Virus record (IMG/VR): IMGVR_UViG_3300049433_000104
Coordinates: 1 to 51,234 of that record
Source of the DNA: a virus
Lineage: Duplodnaviria; Caudoviricetes
Reading direction: 5' to 3' (one strand)
DNA: 51,234 nt
Part shown: positions 1,017 through 49,570 of the stretch, in pieces
Numbering within the stretch: position 1 is the stretch's first letter
Layout: the number at the start of each line of letters is the position of its first letter
The notes under the pieces: generated by a model
Seen by the model: the letters and a program-made list of their open reading frames with translations, nothing else
What the model was told of the DNA's origin: nothing
The model's database searches: none
Position numbers and translations under genes: made by a program

Positions 1017-1892
1017 TCAGCCGATATCCCGCAATACCGCTTCGACCACCTTGCGTTCATCCGCCGTCAATGCCGCCTGCGGTGCAATGGGATCGCCGAC
1101 GTCGTAGCCCTGGATCGCAAGCCCGGCCTTGATGCAGGCGGCGAGATTATACTTCGCGAACGCTTCGTTGAGGCGCCACAGCCGGCGCTGCAGCTTCATC
1201 GCTTCGTCCCAGCGCTGCGCTTTACAGAGAGTATAGAGCTCGACGCTCTGGCGCGGAATAATGCAGGCCGGTCCCGCCATCCAGCCGACGCCCCCGATCA
1301 GCATCACCGCGGCCGGAATATGCGCCGACGCCGAGAATACGCTGATGGCATCGCCGCAGCGGTTCATGATCGACAGCAGCCGCCCGGTATTGGTCGAGGC
1401 GTCCTTGATGGCGACGATGCGCGGATGCGCGGCGAGCCTTGCGATCACGTCGAGCGAGAGATCGGAGCGCTGAAACTGCGGATTGGTGTAGATCACCACC
1501 GGGATGTCGACCGCGTCCGCAATGGCACGGAAGTAGGATTCGACTTGCGCGTCTTGAAGCGGAAAATACGCTTCAAGGATTGCGAGAATGCCGTCGGCAC
1601 CGAGCTTTTGATATGATTTCGCCTGCGCCACCGCGTCCGCGGTCGACGTCGAAGCAACGCCGGCGATAACGGGCACGCGCCGTTGCGCAGCTTCGATGGT
1701 CGTCTTCACCACCGCGGTGCGTTGCTCGGAATTCAGATAGGCGAACTCGCCGGTCGAGCCGAGCGGCGTCAAGCCGTGCACGCCGGCCTTGATCAGATCG
1801 TCGCAGAGCCGGCCGAGCACCTCGTTGCGGATGTGTCCGGCGGCATCAACGGGCGAGACCAGGTAGGGAAAGACGCCGTGAAAATCAGCCAT
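1017..1892 (-). CDS. Dihydrodipicolinate synthase (DapA/NanA) family protein
   Basis: GSTGE motif, YTNP, Schiff-base lysine in IKDAS; 291 aa. Confidence 0.92.
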
Positions 1893-1953: not shown

Positions 1954-3255
1954 ATGACCGTTAGGGAGAAAGCCCCCAGAAATCGACCAATTCCGCGCCA
2001 CGGAGTCCCCATTAACACCCTCGAGTCCGACAACACCGAGCAAGCCGACCTGCGCGGCGGCCGTTCGCCGTGGTTTGCGCATGCCGGGCAGCGCACCCGA
2101 GCCGATGTAAGCGAGGATCTGAAGTGCGACGCGCTGATCGTCGGCGGTGGCATCACCGGATCGCTGATCGCCGAGCAGCTGACGCGGCAAGGCCTCGATG
2201 TCGTGATCATCGACCGGGAATTTCCCGGCCGTGGCAGCACGGCGGCAAGCACATCGATGCTGCTATGGGAAATCGACCGTTCCCTGACGCAACTGACCGA
2301 AATCTACGGCTTTGAGCGGGCGTCGCGCGCCTATCAGGCAAGCCTGCAGGCGGTGAGCGGTTTGAAATCGCTGGTGCTCGACCTCGGCGTCGCCTGCGAC
2401 ATGCGGACCAAGGATTCGATCTATCTCGCCGCCGGCAGCACCAGCAAGGAACTGATCGAAGAACACGCGCTTCGCCGGCGTGCCGGATTGCCGGGCGCGT
2501 TCCTCGACCACGCCATGCTGCTGGAGAATTTCGGCATCGCGCGCGCCGGCGCCATCGTATCGCCTGATGCGGCCGACGCCGATCCGATGCAACTGGCGCA
2601 CGGGTTGCTTAGGGTCGCGGTTTCCCGCGGCGCGCGCCTGTTCGAAGCCGAAGCAATCGAATTCGACGCCGCATCGCGCTCCGTGGGCGTGCGGTTGCAG
2701 AACGGCCGCCAGATCGAAGCGCGCCACGTGGTTCTCGCCACCGGTTATGTGATGCCGAAAATCATTCATTCGACCATCCAAACAGTGTCGTCGAGCTGGG
2801 CGATCGCGACCGCGCCGCAGCCGGAAAATATCTGGAACGGCGGCGCGCTGATCTGGGAGGACAGCAAGGACTATCTCTACGCGCGAACCACGGTTTCGGG
2901 CCGCATCATCATCGGCGGCGAGGACAGCGATGAAATCATCGAGCCGGAGGCGCGCGACGCGCTGATCCCGGAAAAGTCGCGCATCCTCGCACAAAAGCTT
3001 GCAGCGCTTTGGCCGCATGCAAATCGCGACATCGCGTATCGCTGGGCTGGAACGTTCGATACCACCAGTGACGGCTTGCCGTTGATCGGTCCGGTGCCTG
3101 GAAAGAAGGGCATCTTTGCGGCCTATGGTTACGGCGGCAACGGCATCACGTTCAGTTATCTCGCCGCGCAGTTGATCGGCGGGCTGATCGCAGGGGAGAC
3201 TTCGAAGCTGCTGAACGATTTCGCGCTGGATCGGGATGGAAAGGCTGAGGTCTAG
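1954..3255 (+). CDS. FAD-dependent oxidoreductase (DAO family); start uncertain
   Basis: IVGGGITG Rossmann motif, GRGSTAAS, DGLPLIG, GYGGNGIT. Confidence 0.9.
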   Translation: MTVREKAPRNRPIPRHGVPINTLESDNTEQADLRGGRSPWFAHAGQRTRADVSEDLKCDALIVGGGITGSLIAEQLTRQGLDVVIIDREFPGRGSTAASTSMLLWEIDRSLTQLTEIYGFERASRAYQASLQAVSGLKSLVLDLGVACDMRTKDSIYLAAGSTSKELIEEHALRRRAGLPGAFLDHAMLLENFGIARAGAIVSPDAADADPMQLAHGLLRVAVSRGARLFEAEAIEFDAASRSVGVRLQNGRQIEARHVVLATGYVMPKIIHSTIQTVSSSWAIATAPQPENIWNGGALIWEDSKDYLYARTTVSGRIIIGGEDSDEIIEPEARDALIPEKSRILAQKLAALWPHANRDIAYRWAGTFDTTSDGLPLIGPVPGKKGIFAAYGYGGNGITFSYLAAQLIGGLIAGETSKLLNDFALDRDGKAEV

Positions 3256-3271
3256 CACGACAAAAAATAGT

Positions 3272-3280
3272 CGCTCCCTA
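3272..3280. repeat. Degenerate copy of the att core / tRNA-Glu 3' end (CGCTCCCTA)
   Basis: Exact 9-bp match to the att core inside the 26-bp gap where base composition shifts from host-like to lower GC. Confidence 0.55.
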
Positions 3281-3281
3281 A

Positions 3282-5063
3282 TCAAATTCCGCGAACCGGG
3301 TACCGTTCCAAAACACGTTTTCCCTGTTGCACATGAGGTGTAACAGGAGCCCCAAGATCTTTTTTTTCGTTAGGAAGTTGAGGCGCGCAACCACCAATCG
3401 CGACGGCGCACTGCGAAAATTCGCGCGCGGTCATTTCTGCGAGATCACGCGGAAGGGCGTTGATCCACTGTGGCAGATCGTTGATCCGTTCAAAATTAAA
3501 ATTGACGCCCCGAACAGTTGAAACGCCTTTAGCAAGATCTGCAATTATTGGAAGCTTCGACGAACCGCCGGTAAGAAGCACATGTATTGGTACAGGGCGG
3601 CCTAACGCTCTTGTTGCATTCCGATATTCGTTAACATTTTCTTCGGTTAGCGCTGCTGCTAAAAGCTCATCACGCTGAGTTCGGAGGTCTTTACCCAACT
3701 CTTGATAGGATGCTTCTGCGATAACCTCTTCGAGAGTTAAAAGGCCGGATGCGCCAGGCCGCAGCGAAATTGCAACTGTTCCCTCGGTGAATAGTTGTCG
3801 CTTTAAGCCTCGAATTTGAGAATCCAAATCTGCCTTGATAATTGCAAAGTCCTCGGCATTCCATGGGCTGCCATTCTCTGGCTGTACGTTACAGGCTCGG
3901 AGCATTATCGGCCGAAGCGCATGATCAAAGCGATTTCCGGCGACTCGCGACATTCTCACTGCCGATGAAATAAGCGCCAGAGACGAAGTTTCAGTCTTGC
4001 GGTCGTAAAAACTTTGAAACAGCGCAAAATCCGTTGTGCCGGCTCCCGCGTCAATAACCAGCATTAACTGTCTCGCCTGCGGTGACACCGACGTGTCCAG
4101 AAAGTCTTCGAACTGCGTTGCGCCTGCAGCGACTGGCTCGCGAATAGACGCGTGAAGAGCTAGTATCGGCTCTAACTTAGAGACATCTTGTTTTTTCACA
4201 GCATCTAATACGGATTTGGCGCGGTGTGTCGTTAAGGTCGCCCACTCCTCGCTTAACGTATCAGCGACTATTTGTGCTTGTAGAAGCGCCTTTGCCAAAA
4301 CCCCCTGTGCCCATTTTGCGCGTTGCGCACTAGGAACGTCATCCACAGAATGTTCAAAGCACGGTATCGCGTATCTCCGCACGGCAGACCGTAAATCGGA
4401 ATATTTCGTAACGAGCTCTAGTGCATCAGCTTGCGCAGCAGCCGTCAGGGCTTTCAAGGCGAGATCTGTCAACCAAGCTAGATAGAGTACAAGTAAATCT
4501 CCCTTCGTAAGTCCTGAACCCGTAGGATCAATTCCATCGGTCAACGGAATCTCGGAAATATTGAGATTGGGCGCAACCTCGCTCAGTAGACGTTTGATGT
4601 TGTCAAATCTGTATCTACCTGTATGAATTTCAGCTTCCTGTTGGCGTTCTGCCGCATTGCCAAAAAAAATGGTGCCAACTTTAGTAATAAAAATCGAAGA
4701 CGGCACAGCAAGAACGGACTGACCATCTGCTTGTTTACCAAGGACTAGCGGCAAGGTTGCGATAGAGCTGGACATACAAGCCCAAGCTTTTGACATCGCC
4801 GTCCCAAAATCTAAACATATCCGCAAGGCCTCTTCCGGGATTGGTGAGCGTGTTAAGGCTGCTAAATTCAATTTGGCATCAACGACTATTGGCGCGGTCT
4901 GCCGAATCTCCGCTTCAATTGTAACCCCAGCAAGCTCGCGGAATGCCTCGACTTCATCCTTGGACAGAGTGCTTCCAGGAATTTGAAAGTAATCGCCTTC
5001 CTTGTGCAATCTATTTAGGAAGCTAGACACCAATGCTCGTGCAATTGCCTTATCCAAGATCAA
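3282..5063 (-). CDS. Hsp70/actin-fold ATPase, nucleotide-binding domain only
   Basis: Motifs in the correct order: CLDFGTAMSKA, FFGNAA, NIKRLL, EPVAAG, LVIDAGAGTTDFALF, AGNRFDHAL, VLLTGGSSKLP, AVAIGG. Ends about 30 aa later, so no substrate-binding domain. TTG start at 5063 or 5057. Confidence 0.85.
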   Translation of the reverse strand: MILDKAIARALVSSFLNRLHKEGDYFQIPGSTLSKDEVEAFRELAGVTIEAEIRQTAPIVVDAKLNLAALTRSPIPEEALRICLDFGTAMSKAWACMSSSIATLPLVLGKQADGQSVLAVPSSIFITKVGTIFFGNAAERQQEAEIHTGRYRFDNIKRLLSEVAPNLNISEIPLTDGIDPTGSGLTKGDLLVLYLAWLTDLALKALTAAAQADALELVTKYSDLRSAVRRYAIPCFEHSVDDVPSAQRAKWAQGVLAKALLQAQIVADTLSEEWATLTTHRAKSVLDAVKKQDVSKLEPILALHASIREPVAAGATQFEDFLDTSVSPQARQLMLVIDAGAGTTDFALFQSFYDRKTETSSLALISSAVRMSRVAGNRFDHALRPIMLRACNVQPENGSPWNAEDFAIIKADLDSQIRGLKRQLFTEGTVAISLRPGASGLLTLEEVIAEASYQELGKDLRTQRDELLAAALTEENVNEYRNATRALGRPVPIHVLLTGGSSKLPIIADLAKGVSTVRGVNFNFERINDLPQWINALPRDLAEMTAREFSQCAVAIGGCAPQLPNEKKDLGAPVTPHVQQGKRVLERYPVRGI

Positions 5064-5075
5064 TCTCCCACTGGA

Positions 5076-6488
5076 CTAATTTGCAGATGCCAAGCCCTTT
5101 AGAATAACATCTGATCCGCCATCATGTCGGCGACGCACGATCGGCTGACGCACAATTTTTACGGACCGCTCTTTAGGAAAATCCCCTGACGGGAGATCGT
5201 AGACATTTGGCGAATATTCGACGATGTCACCAACGCTTCCGATGGCGGCTAATCCGTGCTGCGACGCAATAGCTCGAACCGCCCGTTGCAGCGAGTCATT
5301 GTTTACATTCTCACGATTGTCCAGTGATAAACGAAACATTTCAGCTAGTTGGCGCACGAATGATTCCGCACCGACAGCAGAAAGAGCGGAGGACGACCTT
5401 TGTTTGCTTGTTCCACGTTCCATTCCGCGAATCCAATCCTGGATTTCTCCTGATAACCCAGCTTCGCTACTGACTATCTCCGTTATTCGATTTTTGTACT
5501 GTTCTTCATTATTTATTGCTTGTTTAAGTCTCTGCAGAAGTACTTCTGATCGTTGGCCGCCTCGCGCACGAAATACTAAGCCGGCGGTCAACTTATCAAT
5601 GATCGGTCCTAGAGCTGCATTTATAATCTCGGGGAAAGATCGCGGCGACCACCACCGATTTATGACTTGGACCAAATCATAAAGTTCAGGTTCGTCCATT
5701 ATGGTCAAACGGACGGCAAGAATTTCATCCAACAACTCAATCGCCGCCTTTGCCGTCAAGTCTAGTCCTTTCGGACGATTTTGCTTAGGTCCGAGGGAGA
5801 TCATCATACGGATAAGTTTTGCCAGTAATTGCCCGGATACAGGAGTGACAGTTAACTTCGAGCGTTTTGTTCGAATCCCCTCAACAAGAGCATCGCATAT
5901 ATCCTTCAGCCGTCCGGCGGCGGCTTCAAGATCTCGTGCAGCGACGTCCTGCAACCCGGGCTCATTAAGCAAACGCTCGATCCATTTATCAATTGACGGC
6001 TCTTGATGTGCAATCTCGCGGGCTAACGCCAATCGACAGCGCTGCGAACGCTCTTCGTCGCCGAGAGCCCTGAAGACGTAAGGTGACAACCATGGGCCGG
6101 TCGCGTCTTTAAGTGCCTCCGCAATATTTTCGCGAACCTCAGCCGGTTTGGCGCTGCCTGGAAGAGATTTTTTATCAGAAATCGTGGATAGCGCAGGTAA
6201 CGGCAGTGAAAGAGAGGCTCGCCTAACCTCGGACGCCATTGCTTGCACCCGCTTATTGTTCTTCATTGAAGCGGGAAGTCGAACGAGAAGGTCAATTGCA
6301 ACTAGCCTACTGGTATCATCTCCAGATCGTGCGATATGGCCTAAGCCCTCTAATCCTTGCTGTAGCCAAGAATAGAATGATTCACCGTTAGGCTTGGCCT
6401 TCGAACTCATCATTTGACGAGCCGAGGACCATTTTTCTTCTAGAAGAGTTGCTTCTGCGAAAGCACGGACTTGTTCGAGTGGATCCAT
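5076..6488 (-). CDS. Alpha-helical hypothetical protein with a GrpE-like C-terminal domain
   Basis: 470-aa lower-GC ORF ending 12 bp before the Hsp70-like gene. C-terminus GLAAIGSVGDIVEYSPNVYD...VKIVRQPI...VILKGLA resembles the GrpE beta domain. Confidence 0.6.
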   Translation of the reverse strand: MDPLEQVRAFAEATLLEEKWSSARQMMSSKAKPNGESFYSWLQQGLEGLGHIARSGDDTSRLVAIDLLVRLPASMKNNKRVQAMASEVRRASLSLPLPALSTISDKKSLPGSAKPAEVRENIAEALKDATGPWLSPYVFRALGDEERSQRCRLALAREIAHQEPSIDKWIERLLNEPGLQDVAARDLEAAAGRLKDICDALVEGIRTKRSKLTVTPVSGQLLAKLIRMMISLGPKQNRPKGLDLTAKAAIELLDEILAVRLTIMDEPELYDLVQVINRWWSPRSFPEIINAALGPIIDKLTAGLVFRARGGQRSEVLLQRLKQAINNEEQYKNRITEIVSSEAGLSGEIQDWIRGMERGTSKQRSSSALSAVGAESFVRQLAEMFRLSLDNRENVNNDSLQRAVRAIASQHGLAAIGSVGDIVEYSPNVYDLPSGDFPKERSVKIVRQPIVRRRHDGGSDVILKGLASAN

Positions 6489-6587
6489 CTAATAATTCCA
6501 AATTAGGCCGAGCGGACTCGAACTATGGATTGTCGCTATTGCAGCGAACTCCTCGACGGGAATGGCGCATAAGTCTTTGACAGTGCT

Positions 6588-6601
6588 TGGCGCTCCCTAG
6601 G
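6588..6601. repeat. Left prophage att core TGGCGCTCCCTAGG
   Basis: Exact 14-bp direct repeat of 49496-49509, the 3' end of tRNA-Glu. Confidence 0.93.
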
Positions 6602-6672
6602 AGGGCGGGAGCGCTTTTTTACTGCCAAATTCGACAGCGATTTCAGTCTACACGACGCCGGCGCCGGCGCAA

Positions 6673-6696
6673 TGTTGGACACTTTGTTGGACAGTT
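6673..6696. promoter_or_regulatory. Putative integrase arm-type sites (left arm)
   Basis: TGTTGGACACTTTGTTGGACAGTT, two TGTTGGACA units; 23/24 identical to 49396-49419. Confidence 0.7.
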
Positions 6697-6772
6697 CCCT
6701 TGCCGTTTTGTTCGCTACTTGTCCGGGGCCGAACGTTGCGCCGCGAGAGCCGAAACGCTTTGATCGCGCCCG

Positions 6773-7132
6773 ATGTCCGGCCGCACAAACTATCCCGTTC
6801 GCTTCCTAGGCGTCCAGCCGTTCCGTCGCATGCCGATCGCGCCTCTGTCCAACGTCGAAGCGGCCGAGCAGCTGGCGCTGGAACGCGACCTGAGAAATGA
6901 ACCGACGCCACTTTCAGGCGGCATGCGGAAGGCCCAGCACAAGGCGCTAGAGGCACAGAACAGCTTGCGCCGACGAATGCCGCGCCGGCACGGCCAAGCC
7001 GACGCCTTGCGGGCCTATGGCCTTTTCACCGCCACCTGCCCGCGGTGCCGCCATTCCATGTTCTTTGACCAGATCGACGACGACGACTTGGGCGCTATCC
7101 GATGCGACCGCTGCAAGCGGCCGATCTGGTAA
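6773..7132 (+). CDS. Small zinc-ribbon protein (start may be 6830)
   Basis: CPRC...CDRC pairs near the C-terminus; followed by a hairpin. Confidence 0.6.
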   Translation: MSGRTNYPVRFLGVQPFRRMPIAPLSNVEAAEQLALERDLRNEPTPLSGGMRKAQHKALEAQNSLRRRMPRRHGQADALRAYGLFTATCPRCRHSMFFDQIDDDDLGAIRCDRCKRPIW

Positions 7133-47866: not shown

Positions 47867-48067
47867 ATGTCAGCGGCCGCGCCCCAAACGTTCACCGAAG
47901 AATGGCTGATCGGTGCGATCGGCCTGATCTCGGAAGTGATCGTCGAACATGGCGCGAAATACGGCCCTTGGCTTGATCTGCTGGAACGCGAGCTGGCCGA
48001 CATCAAGCGGCATGACGATCCGGTCAGCCGCGCCCGGCGCCACCTTGAACGACGGCCAGCTGCCTGA
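47867..48067 (+). CDS. Hypothetical early phage protein
   Basis: Follows the previous stop by 1 bp; convergent with and overlapping the 3' end of int. Confidence 0.55.
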   Translation: MSAAAPQTFTEEWLIGAIGLISEVIVEHGAKYGPWLDLLERELADIKRHDDPVSRARRHLERRPAA

Positions 48068-49385
48068 CGGCGTATTCCCCCGGCATCCCCGGCGCCAGCG
48101 CGATCATCTGAATATATTTCAGCTTCAACCGTAGACCGTGACCGTCGCCATACTTCGGCTTGCCGGTATTGTGGCCCATCAACTCGTCTTTGAGTTCTTC
48201 CGGCGTCTCGACTTCCCGCAACCGATCCTTGAAGCCGTGGCGCAGCGAATAAGCCGTGTGCAGATCGGACGGCTTCATGCCGTTCTCTTTGAGATATTTG
48301 TTCACGGCGGCCGAGAACGCATCGCCCTTGTCGAAATAACGCGGGAAACCATTCGGGAAGGCGCGCATCGCATCGAGCGAAATACCGATCAGCGGGATAT
48401 CTCGATATGACCAGCCGGTTTTTAATACGCGATCATCATCCCGCACCTGAATGTGCGGGATCTCCGCATCGAGCAGGATCCTATGCGGCTGGAGGTTGAT
48501 GATTTCAGACGGCCGCGCACCGGTGTTGACCATGACATGCACTGCGGCGCGTTCTTCATCGTTCATGCCATCGAGCGCACCAGGCGCTAGGATCACATTG
48601 ACGATGAAAGCGGCGTCGAACGGCTTGCGCGATCGCGACGTGCCGCCCTCCAGCCGCGTGCCGGCAAACACCGGATCAAGCCGCAGACGGTGTCGCTTGC
48701 TGACGGCGCGCAACATGCCGGTGATATGGGTTATGTTTTTATTAGCGGTGCCTTCCTGCAGGCCTTCGTCCAGCACCCGTTCTTCCCATCGGTCGCTGTA
48801 CTTAAGCGCGTCGTCCCGCGTCAGTTCGCCGATCGCTTTGTCGCCGACAACCTCGATCAGAATTTCAACGGCGCGCTTTTTAGCGGACTCCCATTTGCGC
48901 AGCTGGTTCGGCGAGAATTTTGCGATCGTGGTTTTCTTCGCGATCCTGTATTCGGCGAACAGTCCGGAAAGCTTGATGATCGGCAACGCCACGCCGCCAA
49001 GCACGGCGGCCGTCGTCGCGGCATCATGCCGGCGATCGCCCTTGGCCAGCTCGTCGACTCGCCGAATGATATCGGCCGCAGCTTCCGTTACCGCGGCTTC
49101 GATCGGCTTATACTCGAGTCCAAGGGCGCGCGCGCGTTTGCGGGCTTCGTCAACGTCGATCGACGCCTGCAGCGTGCCGGCACCGGCGCCGACACGCCAT
49201 GAAGCTTCCAGATCGAGATTGAGCCGATCGGCAACCCTGCCGGCGCGGACTCCAGCTCGATCGCCGGCAGCTCTGATCTTGGTGGAAAGCTTGATCACGC
49301 CGCGCGGGTCAACCGCGGCGAACTCTGCCGGCACCCGCCGCACAAAGTACCAGAGACCGTTCCGTTTGGTTAAACGCTCTGCCAC
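48024..49385 (-). CDS. int: Tyrosine integrase with a DUF6538-like N-terminus
   Basis: WYFVRRVP N-terminus; TGARPSEI, YSLRHGF, LMGH and KYG catalytic motifs. Confidence 0.95.
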   Translation of the reverse strand: MAERLTKRNGLWYFVRRVPAEFAAVDPRGVIKLSTKIRAAGDRAGVRAGRVADRLNLDLEASWRVGAGAGTLQASIDVDEARKRARALGLEYKPIEAAVTEAAADIIRRVDELAKGDRRHDAATTAAVLGGVALPIIKLSGLFAEYRIAKKTTIAKFSPNQLRKWESAKKRAVEILIEVVGDKAIGELTRDDALKYSDRWEERVLDEGLQEGTANKNITHITGMLRAVSKRHRLRLDPVFAGTRLEGGTSRSRKPFDAAFIVNVILAPGALDGMNDEERAAVHVMVNTGARPSEIINLQPHRILLDAEIPHIQVRDDDRVLKTGWSYRDIPLIGISLDAMRAFPNGFPRYFDKGDAFSAAVNKYLKENGMKPSDLHTAYSLRHGFKDRLREVETPEELKDELMGHNTGKPKYGDGHGLRLKLKYIQMIALAPGMPGEYAVRQLAVVQGGAGRG

Positions 49386-49395
49386 GGCTCGCTCG

Positions 49396-49419
49396 TGTTG
49401 GACAATTTGTTGGACAGTT
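49396..49419. promoter_or_regulatory. Putative integrase arm-type sites (right arm)
   Basis: TGTTGGACAATTTGTTGGACAGTT; matches 6673-6696. Confidence 0.7.
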
Positions 49420-49495: not shown

Positions 49496-49570
49496 TGGCG
49501 CTCCCTAGGGGAATCGAACCCCTGTTTCAGCCTTGAGAGGGCCGCGTCCTAACCGCTAGACGAAGGGAGC
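49496..49570 (-). tRNA. tRNA-Glu (CTC); its 3' 14 nt form the right att core
   Basis: GCTCCCTTCGTCTAGCGGTTAGGACGCGGCCCTCTCAAGGCTGAAACAGGGGTTCGATTCCCCTAGGGAGCGCCA folds as a cloverleaf with a CCA end. Confidence 0.97.

Follow-up and report, generated by a model that had tools for sequence, protein, structure and literature searches.

A mobile gene pair of the PADLOC candidate PDC-M61 combines a predicted Hsp70-type ATPase lacking a substrate-binding domain with a solenoid protein that carries a GrpE-like module

What could a bacterium do with an Hsp70-type ATPase that has no domain for holding a peptide and that is encoded beside a protein appearing to end in a GrpE-like module? The question is raised by a two-gene islet of about 3.3 kb in IMG/VR virus record IMGVR_UViG_3300049433_000104, whose complete 51,234 bp form the window analysed here and hold a prophage with host flanks. 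We present the pair, genes A and B, as a member of the PADLOC candidate PDC-M61 and discuss a reading, favoured by a modest degree, in which it is a chaperone cycle rebuilt as an immune switch. The two genes are:

5076–6488, minus strand: gene A, the first of the pair, 470 residues, ATG start, PDC-M61A-type
3282–5063, minus strand: gene B, an open reading frame (ORF) of 593 residues with a TTG start, PDC-M61B-type Hsp70-like ATPase

The true start of B is probably its third codon, a TTG at 5057 giving 591 residues, because a GGGAGA Shine-Dalgarno sequence lies 6–7 nt ahead of it and the identical database protein P0003 is 591 residues long. A sequence-only reading of this DNA had described two linked ORFs separated by 12 bp, lower in GC than the host genes and lying directly outside the attachment (att) site of the prophage. 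All of this holds: the gap is 12 bp, the GC fraction over 3251–6500 is 0.47–0.53 against 0.60–0.66 in the flanks, and a copy of the tRNA 3′ end stands just beyond gene A, the tRNA itself being 43 kb away.

The case for B rests on its fold and its catalytic residues. We divide the protein as follows:

4839–5063, minus strand: B residues 1–75, small N-terminal alpha/beta domain and low-confidence linker, specific to the A-linked form
3390–4838, minus strand: B residues 76–558, nucleotide-binding domain (NBD) that keeps a complete catalytic set and contains large helical insertions
3285–3389, minus strand: B residues 559–593, conserved low-confidence C-terminal tail, with no substrate-binding domain (SBD) after it

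An AlphaFold2 model built on 40 homologues (predicted local distance difference test, pLDDT, 86.5; predicted template-modelling score 0.82) found at least 500 Foldseek matches in the PDB at E<=1e-3, and among the 49 matches listed every chain belongs to the Hsp70 family (DnaK, BiP, Ssb, Hsc70, mortalin; best E 1.3e-13). The template-modelling (TM) score was highest against NBD-only chains, at 0.57–0.66 when normalised to them. A DnaK/HscA profile, made from sequences of five genomes carrying the pair, aligns by hhalign to B residues 82–510 (P 0.0011) and places D85 on the phosphate-1 Asp of DnaK, K157 on the catalytic Lys, E309 on the Glu of the NEPTAA motif, D338, T343 and D345 on the phosphate-2 DxGGGTxD motif, and G499-G500 on the adenosine motif; all of these residues are invariant in the 40-sequence alignment of B. 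The model stops after the last NBD helix (539–558) and a short tail, with neither beta-sandwich nor lid. At the other end, residues 1–45 are modelled as a helix (5–17), a strand (20–33) and a second helix (35–44), followed by residues 49–56 at pLDDT below 50; long helical insertions occupy about 187–300, and the tail (pLDDT 49–71) keeps P564, E566, P576 and G581 nearly invariant. Family searches see little of this: Pfam returns no family for B at E<=1, the gathering score of HSP70 (PF00012) not being reached, NCBIfam gives a weak match to a YegD-like chaperone model (E 7e-4), and a PDB profile search gives BiP and DnaK NBDs only, at E about 0.01. For residues 1–76 the best ESM Atlas score, 0.80, is at chance level and assigns no fold or family; a search for longer, fused forms of B, covering 7,998 scored candidates, gave none, a negative of little weight. 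A filament ATPase of the ParM/MreB type was considered and rejected, Hsp70 proteins making up all 49 structural matches listed. On its model, then, B is rightly read as an Hsp70-type NBD with every ATPase motif and no SBD, standing outside Pfam HSP70; fold and intact catalytic residues together predict an active ATPase that would be unable to hold peptides itself.

Protein A is the more divergent partner, and its two parts need separate treatment:

5430–6488, minus strand: A residues 1–353, ARM/HEAT-like alpha-solenoid, the proposed sensor or target-binding part
5079–5408, minus strand: A residues 361–470, GrpE-like module of two helices and a small beta domain

The AlphaFold2 model of A, built on 45 sequences (pLDDT 91.3), is helical over about 410 residues and shows a flexible linker at 354–364 (pLDDT <50), two helices at 365–410 and a small beta domain at 413–469. 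An exhaustive HMMER search gave 229 representative relatives at E<=1e-3, against only 23 in a word-based search, which misses most of them because the family diverges fast. Pfam (E<=0.001) and NCBIfam scans of A gave nothing usable, the best E of a PDB profile search was 0.064, and Foldseek with the whole model returned weak ARM-repeat matches and no GrpE. Of the fold searches with the whole model, the sole one to show GrpE was an exhaustive VIA-align run, which superposes A residues 361–470 on GrpE 74–193. Profile comparison agrees with it. When the C-terminal columns of the A alignment were compared by hhalign with a profile of 34 GrpE sequences from genomes, P was 0.0057 with 45 rows and 5.4e-4 with 114 rows (score 26.5), a score reached by none of 150 column-shuffled GrpE alignments (mean 10.1, maximum 17.3); the solenoid, as a control, gave P 0.49. 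In the GrpE alignment made for this comparison, two conserved stretches, G..FDP..H and RLLRPA.V, pair with G..VEYSP..H and V.IVRP.V of A. In the ESM Atlas a GrpE fragment family is the named cluster closest in features to A 361–470 (0.87, no more than a lead), and four structure rows are GrpE-family clusters with TM scores of 0.52–0.65. A thus has the helical pair and C-terminal beta domain of GrpE; the long N-terminal dimerisation helix is not present, and the solenoid and flexible linker stand in its place. These models and alignments support a GrpE-like fold for the C-terminus of A, with a strength that suits a remote homologue rather than a member of the family. A complex prediction with full-length B and A 361–470 gave an interface score (ipSAE) of 0.00 in two runs without controls and counts neither way.

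The two genes travel together. We scanned 185,579 species, each represented by one genome, and obtained 126 relatives of B; 80 of them were retained as loci L001–L080, in which every ORF was searched with hidden Markov models (HMMs) of A and B. Loci L001–L038 carry, four decayed copies apart, full-length B-type genes in Alpha-, Beta- and Gammaproteobacteria, the hosts including Hyphomicrobiales, Roseomonas, Pandoraea, Paraburkholderia, Variovorax, Rhodanobacter, Pseudomonas and Thioalkalivibrio; the distribution over the three classes is patchy. By HMM, A stands beside B in 36 of the 38 and lies upstream on the same strand in 33, with gaps of -4 to 61 bp where blastp placed both genes intact, the one exception being 773 bp in L004. 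Clustering the ORFs of these loci left two conserved families, B (38 loci) and A (34 by BLAST, 36 by HMM); the next family occurs in 5/38, so that there is no third conserved gene and no conserved J-domain, nuclease or other effector, nor is a J-domain or nuclease gene present within the islet. The remaining loci, L039–L080 (42 loci in Hyphomonadaceae and Caulobacterales), hold a shorter paralogue that never occurs with A and covers only profile positions about 75–567, without the N-terminal ~75 residues and the tail of B. Its synteny is conserved: a response regulator and a histidine kinase precede it, and a subset of the loci has a downstream radical-SAM gene overlapping the paralogue stop; it is a different, core-type gene. 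Since the paralogue lacks A and also both ends, the N-terminal domain and tail of B go with having A.

The two partners also evolve at different rates. Measured against the window's own proteins, B is better conserved than A in all 12 loci that align over most of their length (mean identity 34.3 against 27.6 %), and in about 20 further loci A is no longer seen by BLASTP while B is still 25–30 % identical. Within A, the C-terminal module is better kept than the solenoid in three of the five distant loci (A below 30 % identical) for which blastp scored both halves; the identities are 39 and 22 % in L010 and 35 and 24 % in L020, to name two. Such a pattern would fit a module that touches the conserved ATPase and a solenoid that tracks a changing target.

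Several loci depart from the standard arrangement. In the gammaproteobacterial L022 (9435–10937) and L029 (9433–12858), A is encoded downstream of B but on the other strand, so that the two genes converge, and the A-like part of L029 is the last 465 residues of an open frame of 1,142 codons. The decayed copies comprise an in-frame deletion fusion of A (profile 6–187) to B (225–596) in L037 (7362–8573), a B split into five frames in L013 (8001–9377), and truncated B genes without A in L006 and L007. An example of the paralogue, in L042 (7959–9329), is about 456 residues long and matches Pfam HSP70 at E 7e-6.

Where does the pair settle? Neighbours were taken as genes within 4 kb of it and named by Pfam; a PADLOC scan then covered 128 of 210 neighbour ORFs from 31 loci, the remainder being already Pfam-named or short. 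At E<=1e-10, 30/128 of these ORFs, spread over 21 of the 31 loci, matched PADLOC models, which include BrxA/B, BrxL, type I restriction–modification (R-M), DndB/E, GmrSD, AbiLi and HEC-07. Around the paralogue, used as a control, there was one match among 150 scanned of 265 neighbour ORFs (1/24 loci), a figure that comes from a different clade, is not taxon-matched and serves as a method baseline only. The evidence supports a pair that moves between variable, defence-rich contexts.

The pair is already catalogued. In PADLOC-DB v2, B matches PDC-M61B (E 4.3e-90, residues 53–570 on profile positions 97–567 of 588) and A matches four PDC-M61A models (best E 1.3e-20); with the same gene order and two-gene make-up, the window pair is a member of PDC-M61. 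This candidate is among those for phage defence put into PADLOC by Payne et al. (10.1101/2024.01.29.577857), who nominated systems found embedded in BREX, DISARM and type I R-M. That the pair is embedded in BREX and type I R-M loci is thus what the discovery method expects. The words Hsp70, chaperone, GrpE and DnaK do not occur in the main text of that paper, whose supplementary tables may annotate PDC-M61. A full-text search for 'PDC-M61' returned only one paper, in which PDC-M61 is reported to be negatively correlated with prophage number in P. aeruginosa isolates (10.1101/2024.04.30.591980); variant spellings gave none, and searches combining Hsp70 or GrpE with phage defence gave no paper describing this pair. 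What is already known is the pair as a PDC-M61 candidate; what is new is the Hsp70/GrpE domain reading, which is absent from the searchable texts.

In its overall interpretation the sequence-only reading had proposed an undescribed defence or conflict system, and the novelty of the pair is the part that falls. GrpE-type docking on the NBD, exchange-factor activity and a phage role are inferences. The structural calls and the linkage stand. That B has every Hsp70 ATPase motif and no SBD is borne out by hhalign, the 40-sequence alignment, the AlphaFold2 model and Foldseek; the helical A with a GrpE-like C-terminus, whose quoted motifs are indeed in the translation, is upheld by VIA-align, hhalign and the ESM Atlas; and the lack of a J-domain or nuclease gene, the co-occurrence of both genes elsewhere and the mobility of the pair among defence-rich neighbourhoods all agree with the loci described above.

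On these grounds we favour the following explanation, which as a whole package we regard as probable by a modest measure. PDC-M61 would be a mobile two-gene module in which a chaperone cycle has been rebuilt as an immune switch. Directly supported are both folds, the intact catalytic residues of B, the linkage of the genes, their mobility, the defence-island context and the att-bounded insertion; mobility at this locus follows from the low GC and the att-like repeats at both islet ends. B would keep ATP hydrolysis, its peptide-binding domain having been lost. The GrpE-like module of A may dock on the NBD cleft of B and set its nucleotide state, as an exchange factor or as a brake, and the fast-evolving ARM/HEAT solenoid may bind a protein, most likely a phage protein. 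Target binding would then alter the coupling between A and B, and the ATP-driven complex could hold, remodel or sequester its target or signal to a host factor. Such a mechanism would involve neither a nuclease nor any other classical effector; because no effector gene exists, the output would be either direct or exerted through a host factor. The pair would protect against phage.

A number of observations weigh against this explanation. The ATPase of canonical Hsp70 is slow without a J-domain partner, and none is present here. With no effector visible, the output step is guesswork, and a GrpE-type dimer geometry is not assured because the solenoid replaces the long dimerising helix. The Pfam HSP70 and GrpE models match neither protein at E<=1, and the hhalign probability for GrpE is only 30 %. 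Ten of the 31 scanned loci have no PADLOC neighbour, the seven unscanned loci look housekeeping by Pfam, and the control sets no taxon-matched standard for the rest. Among IMG/VR viral contigs, 81 pattern matches include no relative of B, which fits a host-island gene and gives no phage link. Payne et al. count 145 PDC systems and term them untested (10.1101/2024.01.29.577857).

A bolder version of the immune switch goes further, and as a complete proposal we think it rather unlikely. Here the pair would be an effector-less immune machine made from the Hsp70 cycle: the solenoid of A would substitute in trans for the missing SBD and capture a phage protein, which the NBD of B and the GrpE-like module would lock, unfold or sequester by means of ATP, with no killing of the cell, while the N-terminal domain and tail of B would dock on A as the tail of Hsp70 docks on TPR co-chaperones.

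One may instead suppose that the pair is not directed against phage and is cargo of integrative elements, serving element maintenance or addiction, stress tolerance or specialised assembly as a chaperone. We judge this unlikely, and the neighbours show why. The islet is att-bounded and adjoins a prophage, no phenotype is known, and the loci without a defence neighbour suit this view; against it, the pair lies inside BREX and type I R-M operons and beside Dnd, GmrSD and AbiL-type genes, compared with 1/24 control loci. The neighbours concerned are BrxA/BrxB in L016, BrxL in L024, HsdM-HsdS ahead of the pair and an ABC/OLD-type ATPase behind it in L026, L028 and L032, DndB/DndE/HNH in L008 and L030, and GmrSD with a UvrD helicase in L014; others are E2/E1/JAB genes with an integrase (L001), SNF2 helicases (L002, L017, L031), a KAP NTPase (L036) and a type III methylase (L023). 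The patchy occurrence over three proteobacterial classes, the decayed copies (L006, L007, L013, L037) and the faster-evolving partner A, which fits an arms race, also speak against mere cargo. In the three gammaproteobacterial loci L026, L028 and L032 the common order is HsdM, HsdS, A, B, the ABC/OLD-type ATPase and an unknown 290-residue protein; the ATPase is NsnB/PDC-M55A/HEC-03B-like, so that the pair and a second candidate system sit inside one type I R-M locus.

Equally improbable, in our view, is that the likeness to GrpE is chance, as might happen with a small helix-plus-beta fold, in which case A would be a scaffold or sensor and B alone a switch or self-assembling ATPase; HSP70-like NTPases are said to be able to replace STAND switches (10.64898/2026.10.19.760177). 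Three different methods give GrpE, and nothing else, for A 361–470, and where the profiles align, the GrpE alignment is at its most conserved. In three of five distant loci no part of A is kept better than the module, and chance would seldom put a GrpE fold beside an Hsp70 NBD in a single operon.

The weakest alternative, which we consider very doubtful, has the GrpE-like module acting on host DnaK to monitor or hijack the DnaK/DnaJ/GrpE cycle, with B as a decoy NBD or second switch: many phages need that housekeeping cycle, the GrpE fold is to our knowledge known to act only on Hsp70 NBDs, and DnaK and GrpE are found in every host (5/5 and 41/41 genomes), but A is strictly tied to B (36/38 loci), its C-terminal module is kept along with B across hosts with differing DnaK, and the full catalytic set of B would be needless in a decoy. 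For bNACHT25, host DnaJ is already described as mediating phage sensing (PMC12169576).

How does PDC-M61, read as an immune switch, relate to systems already described? The DnaK–GrpE complex (PDB 1DKG) is a structural reference: B has the NBD fold and catalytic residues, A 361–470 superposes on GrpE with profile similarity in the conserved GrpE stretches, and the two are encoded side by side. Unlike DnaK, B has no SBD or lid, and to its NBD are added a domain at the N-terminus, large helical insertions and a tail that is conserved; A has a 350-residue solenoid instead of the long dimerising helix of GrpE; there is no DnaJ; and the pair is mobile and patchy rather than universal, neither protein reaching Pfam HSP70 or GrpE. 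A second comparison is with CnuD of type III CoCoNuTs (Bell et al. 2024, PMC11090510), a single protein described there as combining an Hsp70-like NBD, an SBD and HEAT-like repeats, as acting alongside GTPase genes of the McrBC type and HEPN genes, and, its ATPase motifs being degenerate, as an RNA binder. CnuD/CnuCD resembles our pair in joining an Hsp70-like ATPase to HEAT-like repeats in a predicted defence system often embedded with BREX or type I R-M. Set apart by description, A and B differ from it in splitting NBD and repeats over two proteins, in lacking an SBD, in the GrpE-like module and in invariant catalytic residues; no McrBC is conserved with them, an AAA_5 neighbour occurring in 1/38 loci (L025). 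Finally, Kaur et al. (2020, PMC7159879) describe the GAP1-N2 GTPase-centric systems, which occur in Actinobacteria and Firmicutes, as multi-gene predicted conflict systems with HSP70 and free-standing GrpE, a subset having an HSP70 without a peptide-binding domain, and with TPR or DnaJ fusions nearby. PDC-M61 shares the predicted conflict role and the HSP70–GrpE combination, and differs in having two genes only, in its proteobacterial hosts, in the fusion of the GrpE-like module to a solenoid, and in the absence of a GTPase from its conserved neighbours, no family beyond A and B occurring in more than 5/38 loci.

What is the relevance of such an arrangement? Most known bacterial defence systems end in a nuclease, an NADase, a pore or a nucleotide-depleting enzyme. 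A pair of genes made up solely of an Hsp70-type ATPase and a solenoid with its own GrpE-like exchange factor would depart from these and, if the immune-switch reading is true, show that the chaperone cycle itself can be put to use in immunity, both to sense and to act. The domain reading supplies a testable mechanism for one untested PADLOC candidate and connects two computational observations, that of Hsp70-like proteins with HEAT repeats in CoCoNuTs and that of HSP70 with GrpE in GTPase-centred systems. It also offers experimental handles, namely the catalytic residues of B, the A 361–470 module, a conserved patch in the A solenoid and the tail of B. Even without a phage phenotype, the pair would be the first case in which a GrpE-like module is joined to a repeat scaffold and serves an SBD-less Hsp70 alone.

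The position of the islet in the window bears on how the pair arrived there. The relevant features are:

1017–1892, minus strand: DHDPS-family host gene
1954–3255, plus strand: DAO-family FAD-dependent oxidoreductase in the host flank
3272–3280, plus strand: partial att copy (9-bp core) at the left islet edge, in the 26-bp gap between the DAO stop and the B stop
6588–6601, plus strand: att repeat, exact copy of the tRNA-Glu 3′ end, forming the distal prophage border and the right islet edge
48024–49385: tyrosine integrase
49496–49570, minus strand: tRNA-Glu(ctc), the integration target, whose 3′ 14 bases are the att core

The 14-bp 3′ end of tRNA-Glu, TGGCGCTCCCTAGG, has one exact second copy, at 6588–6601, about 100 bp upstream of the A start codon. 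The prophage accordingly spans about 6602–49495 (43 kb), the islet lies just outside it, and tRNA-Glu is found at the opposite prophage end. We rejected the islet as prophage cargo, as it falls outside the att repeat. The 9-bp core, CGCTCCCTA, has three copies on one strand of the window against 0.25 expected, and none of 100 shuffles reaches three; with core copies at 3272–3280 and 6588–6601, the islet is itself flanked by att-like repeats. No integrase belongs to it. An earlier integration at this tRNA may have left the islet behind, as a remnant or as cargo, with the prophage having entered later, in tandem. A search for an empty site among 151 genomes of the order of L001's genome matched 34, none with the DHDPS-DAO-tRNA arrangement, and the best of these matches reached 81 % over the DHDPS gene only. 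A sigma-70 promoter scan of 3100–6800 found 0 sites against 2.8 expected, and we accordingly put forward no promoter.

The prophage carries, by Pfam, genes for a tail tube, HK97-type capsid, portal, terminase, Prim-Pol/D5 primase-helicase and ParB-HTH protein, and further an MT-A70 methyltransferase, a DUF5131 protein and an M15 peptidase with a peptidoglycan (PG)-binding domain, together with a 1,696-residue ORF that has no Pfam match.

Some observations on sequences related to A extend beyond the pair. Among the ESM Atlas rows for A 361–470, cyanobacterial clusters combine HTH_26/HTH_3 with GrpE, and a 1,022-residue DEAD/Helicase_C/ResIII cluster aligns to A residues 371–470; accessory modules with the GrpE fold may thus be more widespread. 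P0144, a metagenomic protein of 265 residues, is 73 % identical to A 114–185 and then diverges into a PF14267 (DUF4357) region; it is probably the remnant of an A gene joined to other sequence. In the window, a 24-bp direct repeat (6673–6696 and 49396–49419, 23/24 identical) lies about 75 bp inside each prophage end, and each copy contains two TGTTGGACA units, which are candidate arm-type integrase binding sites.

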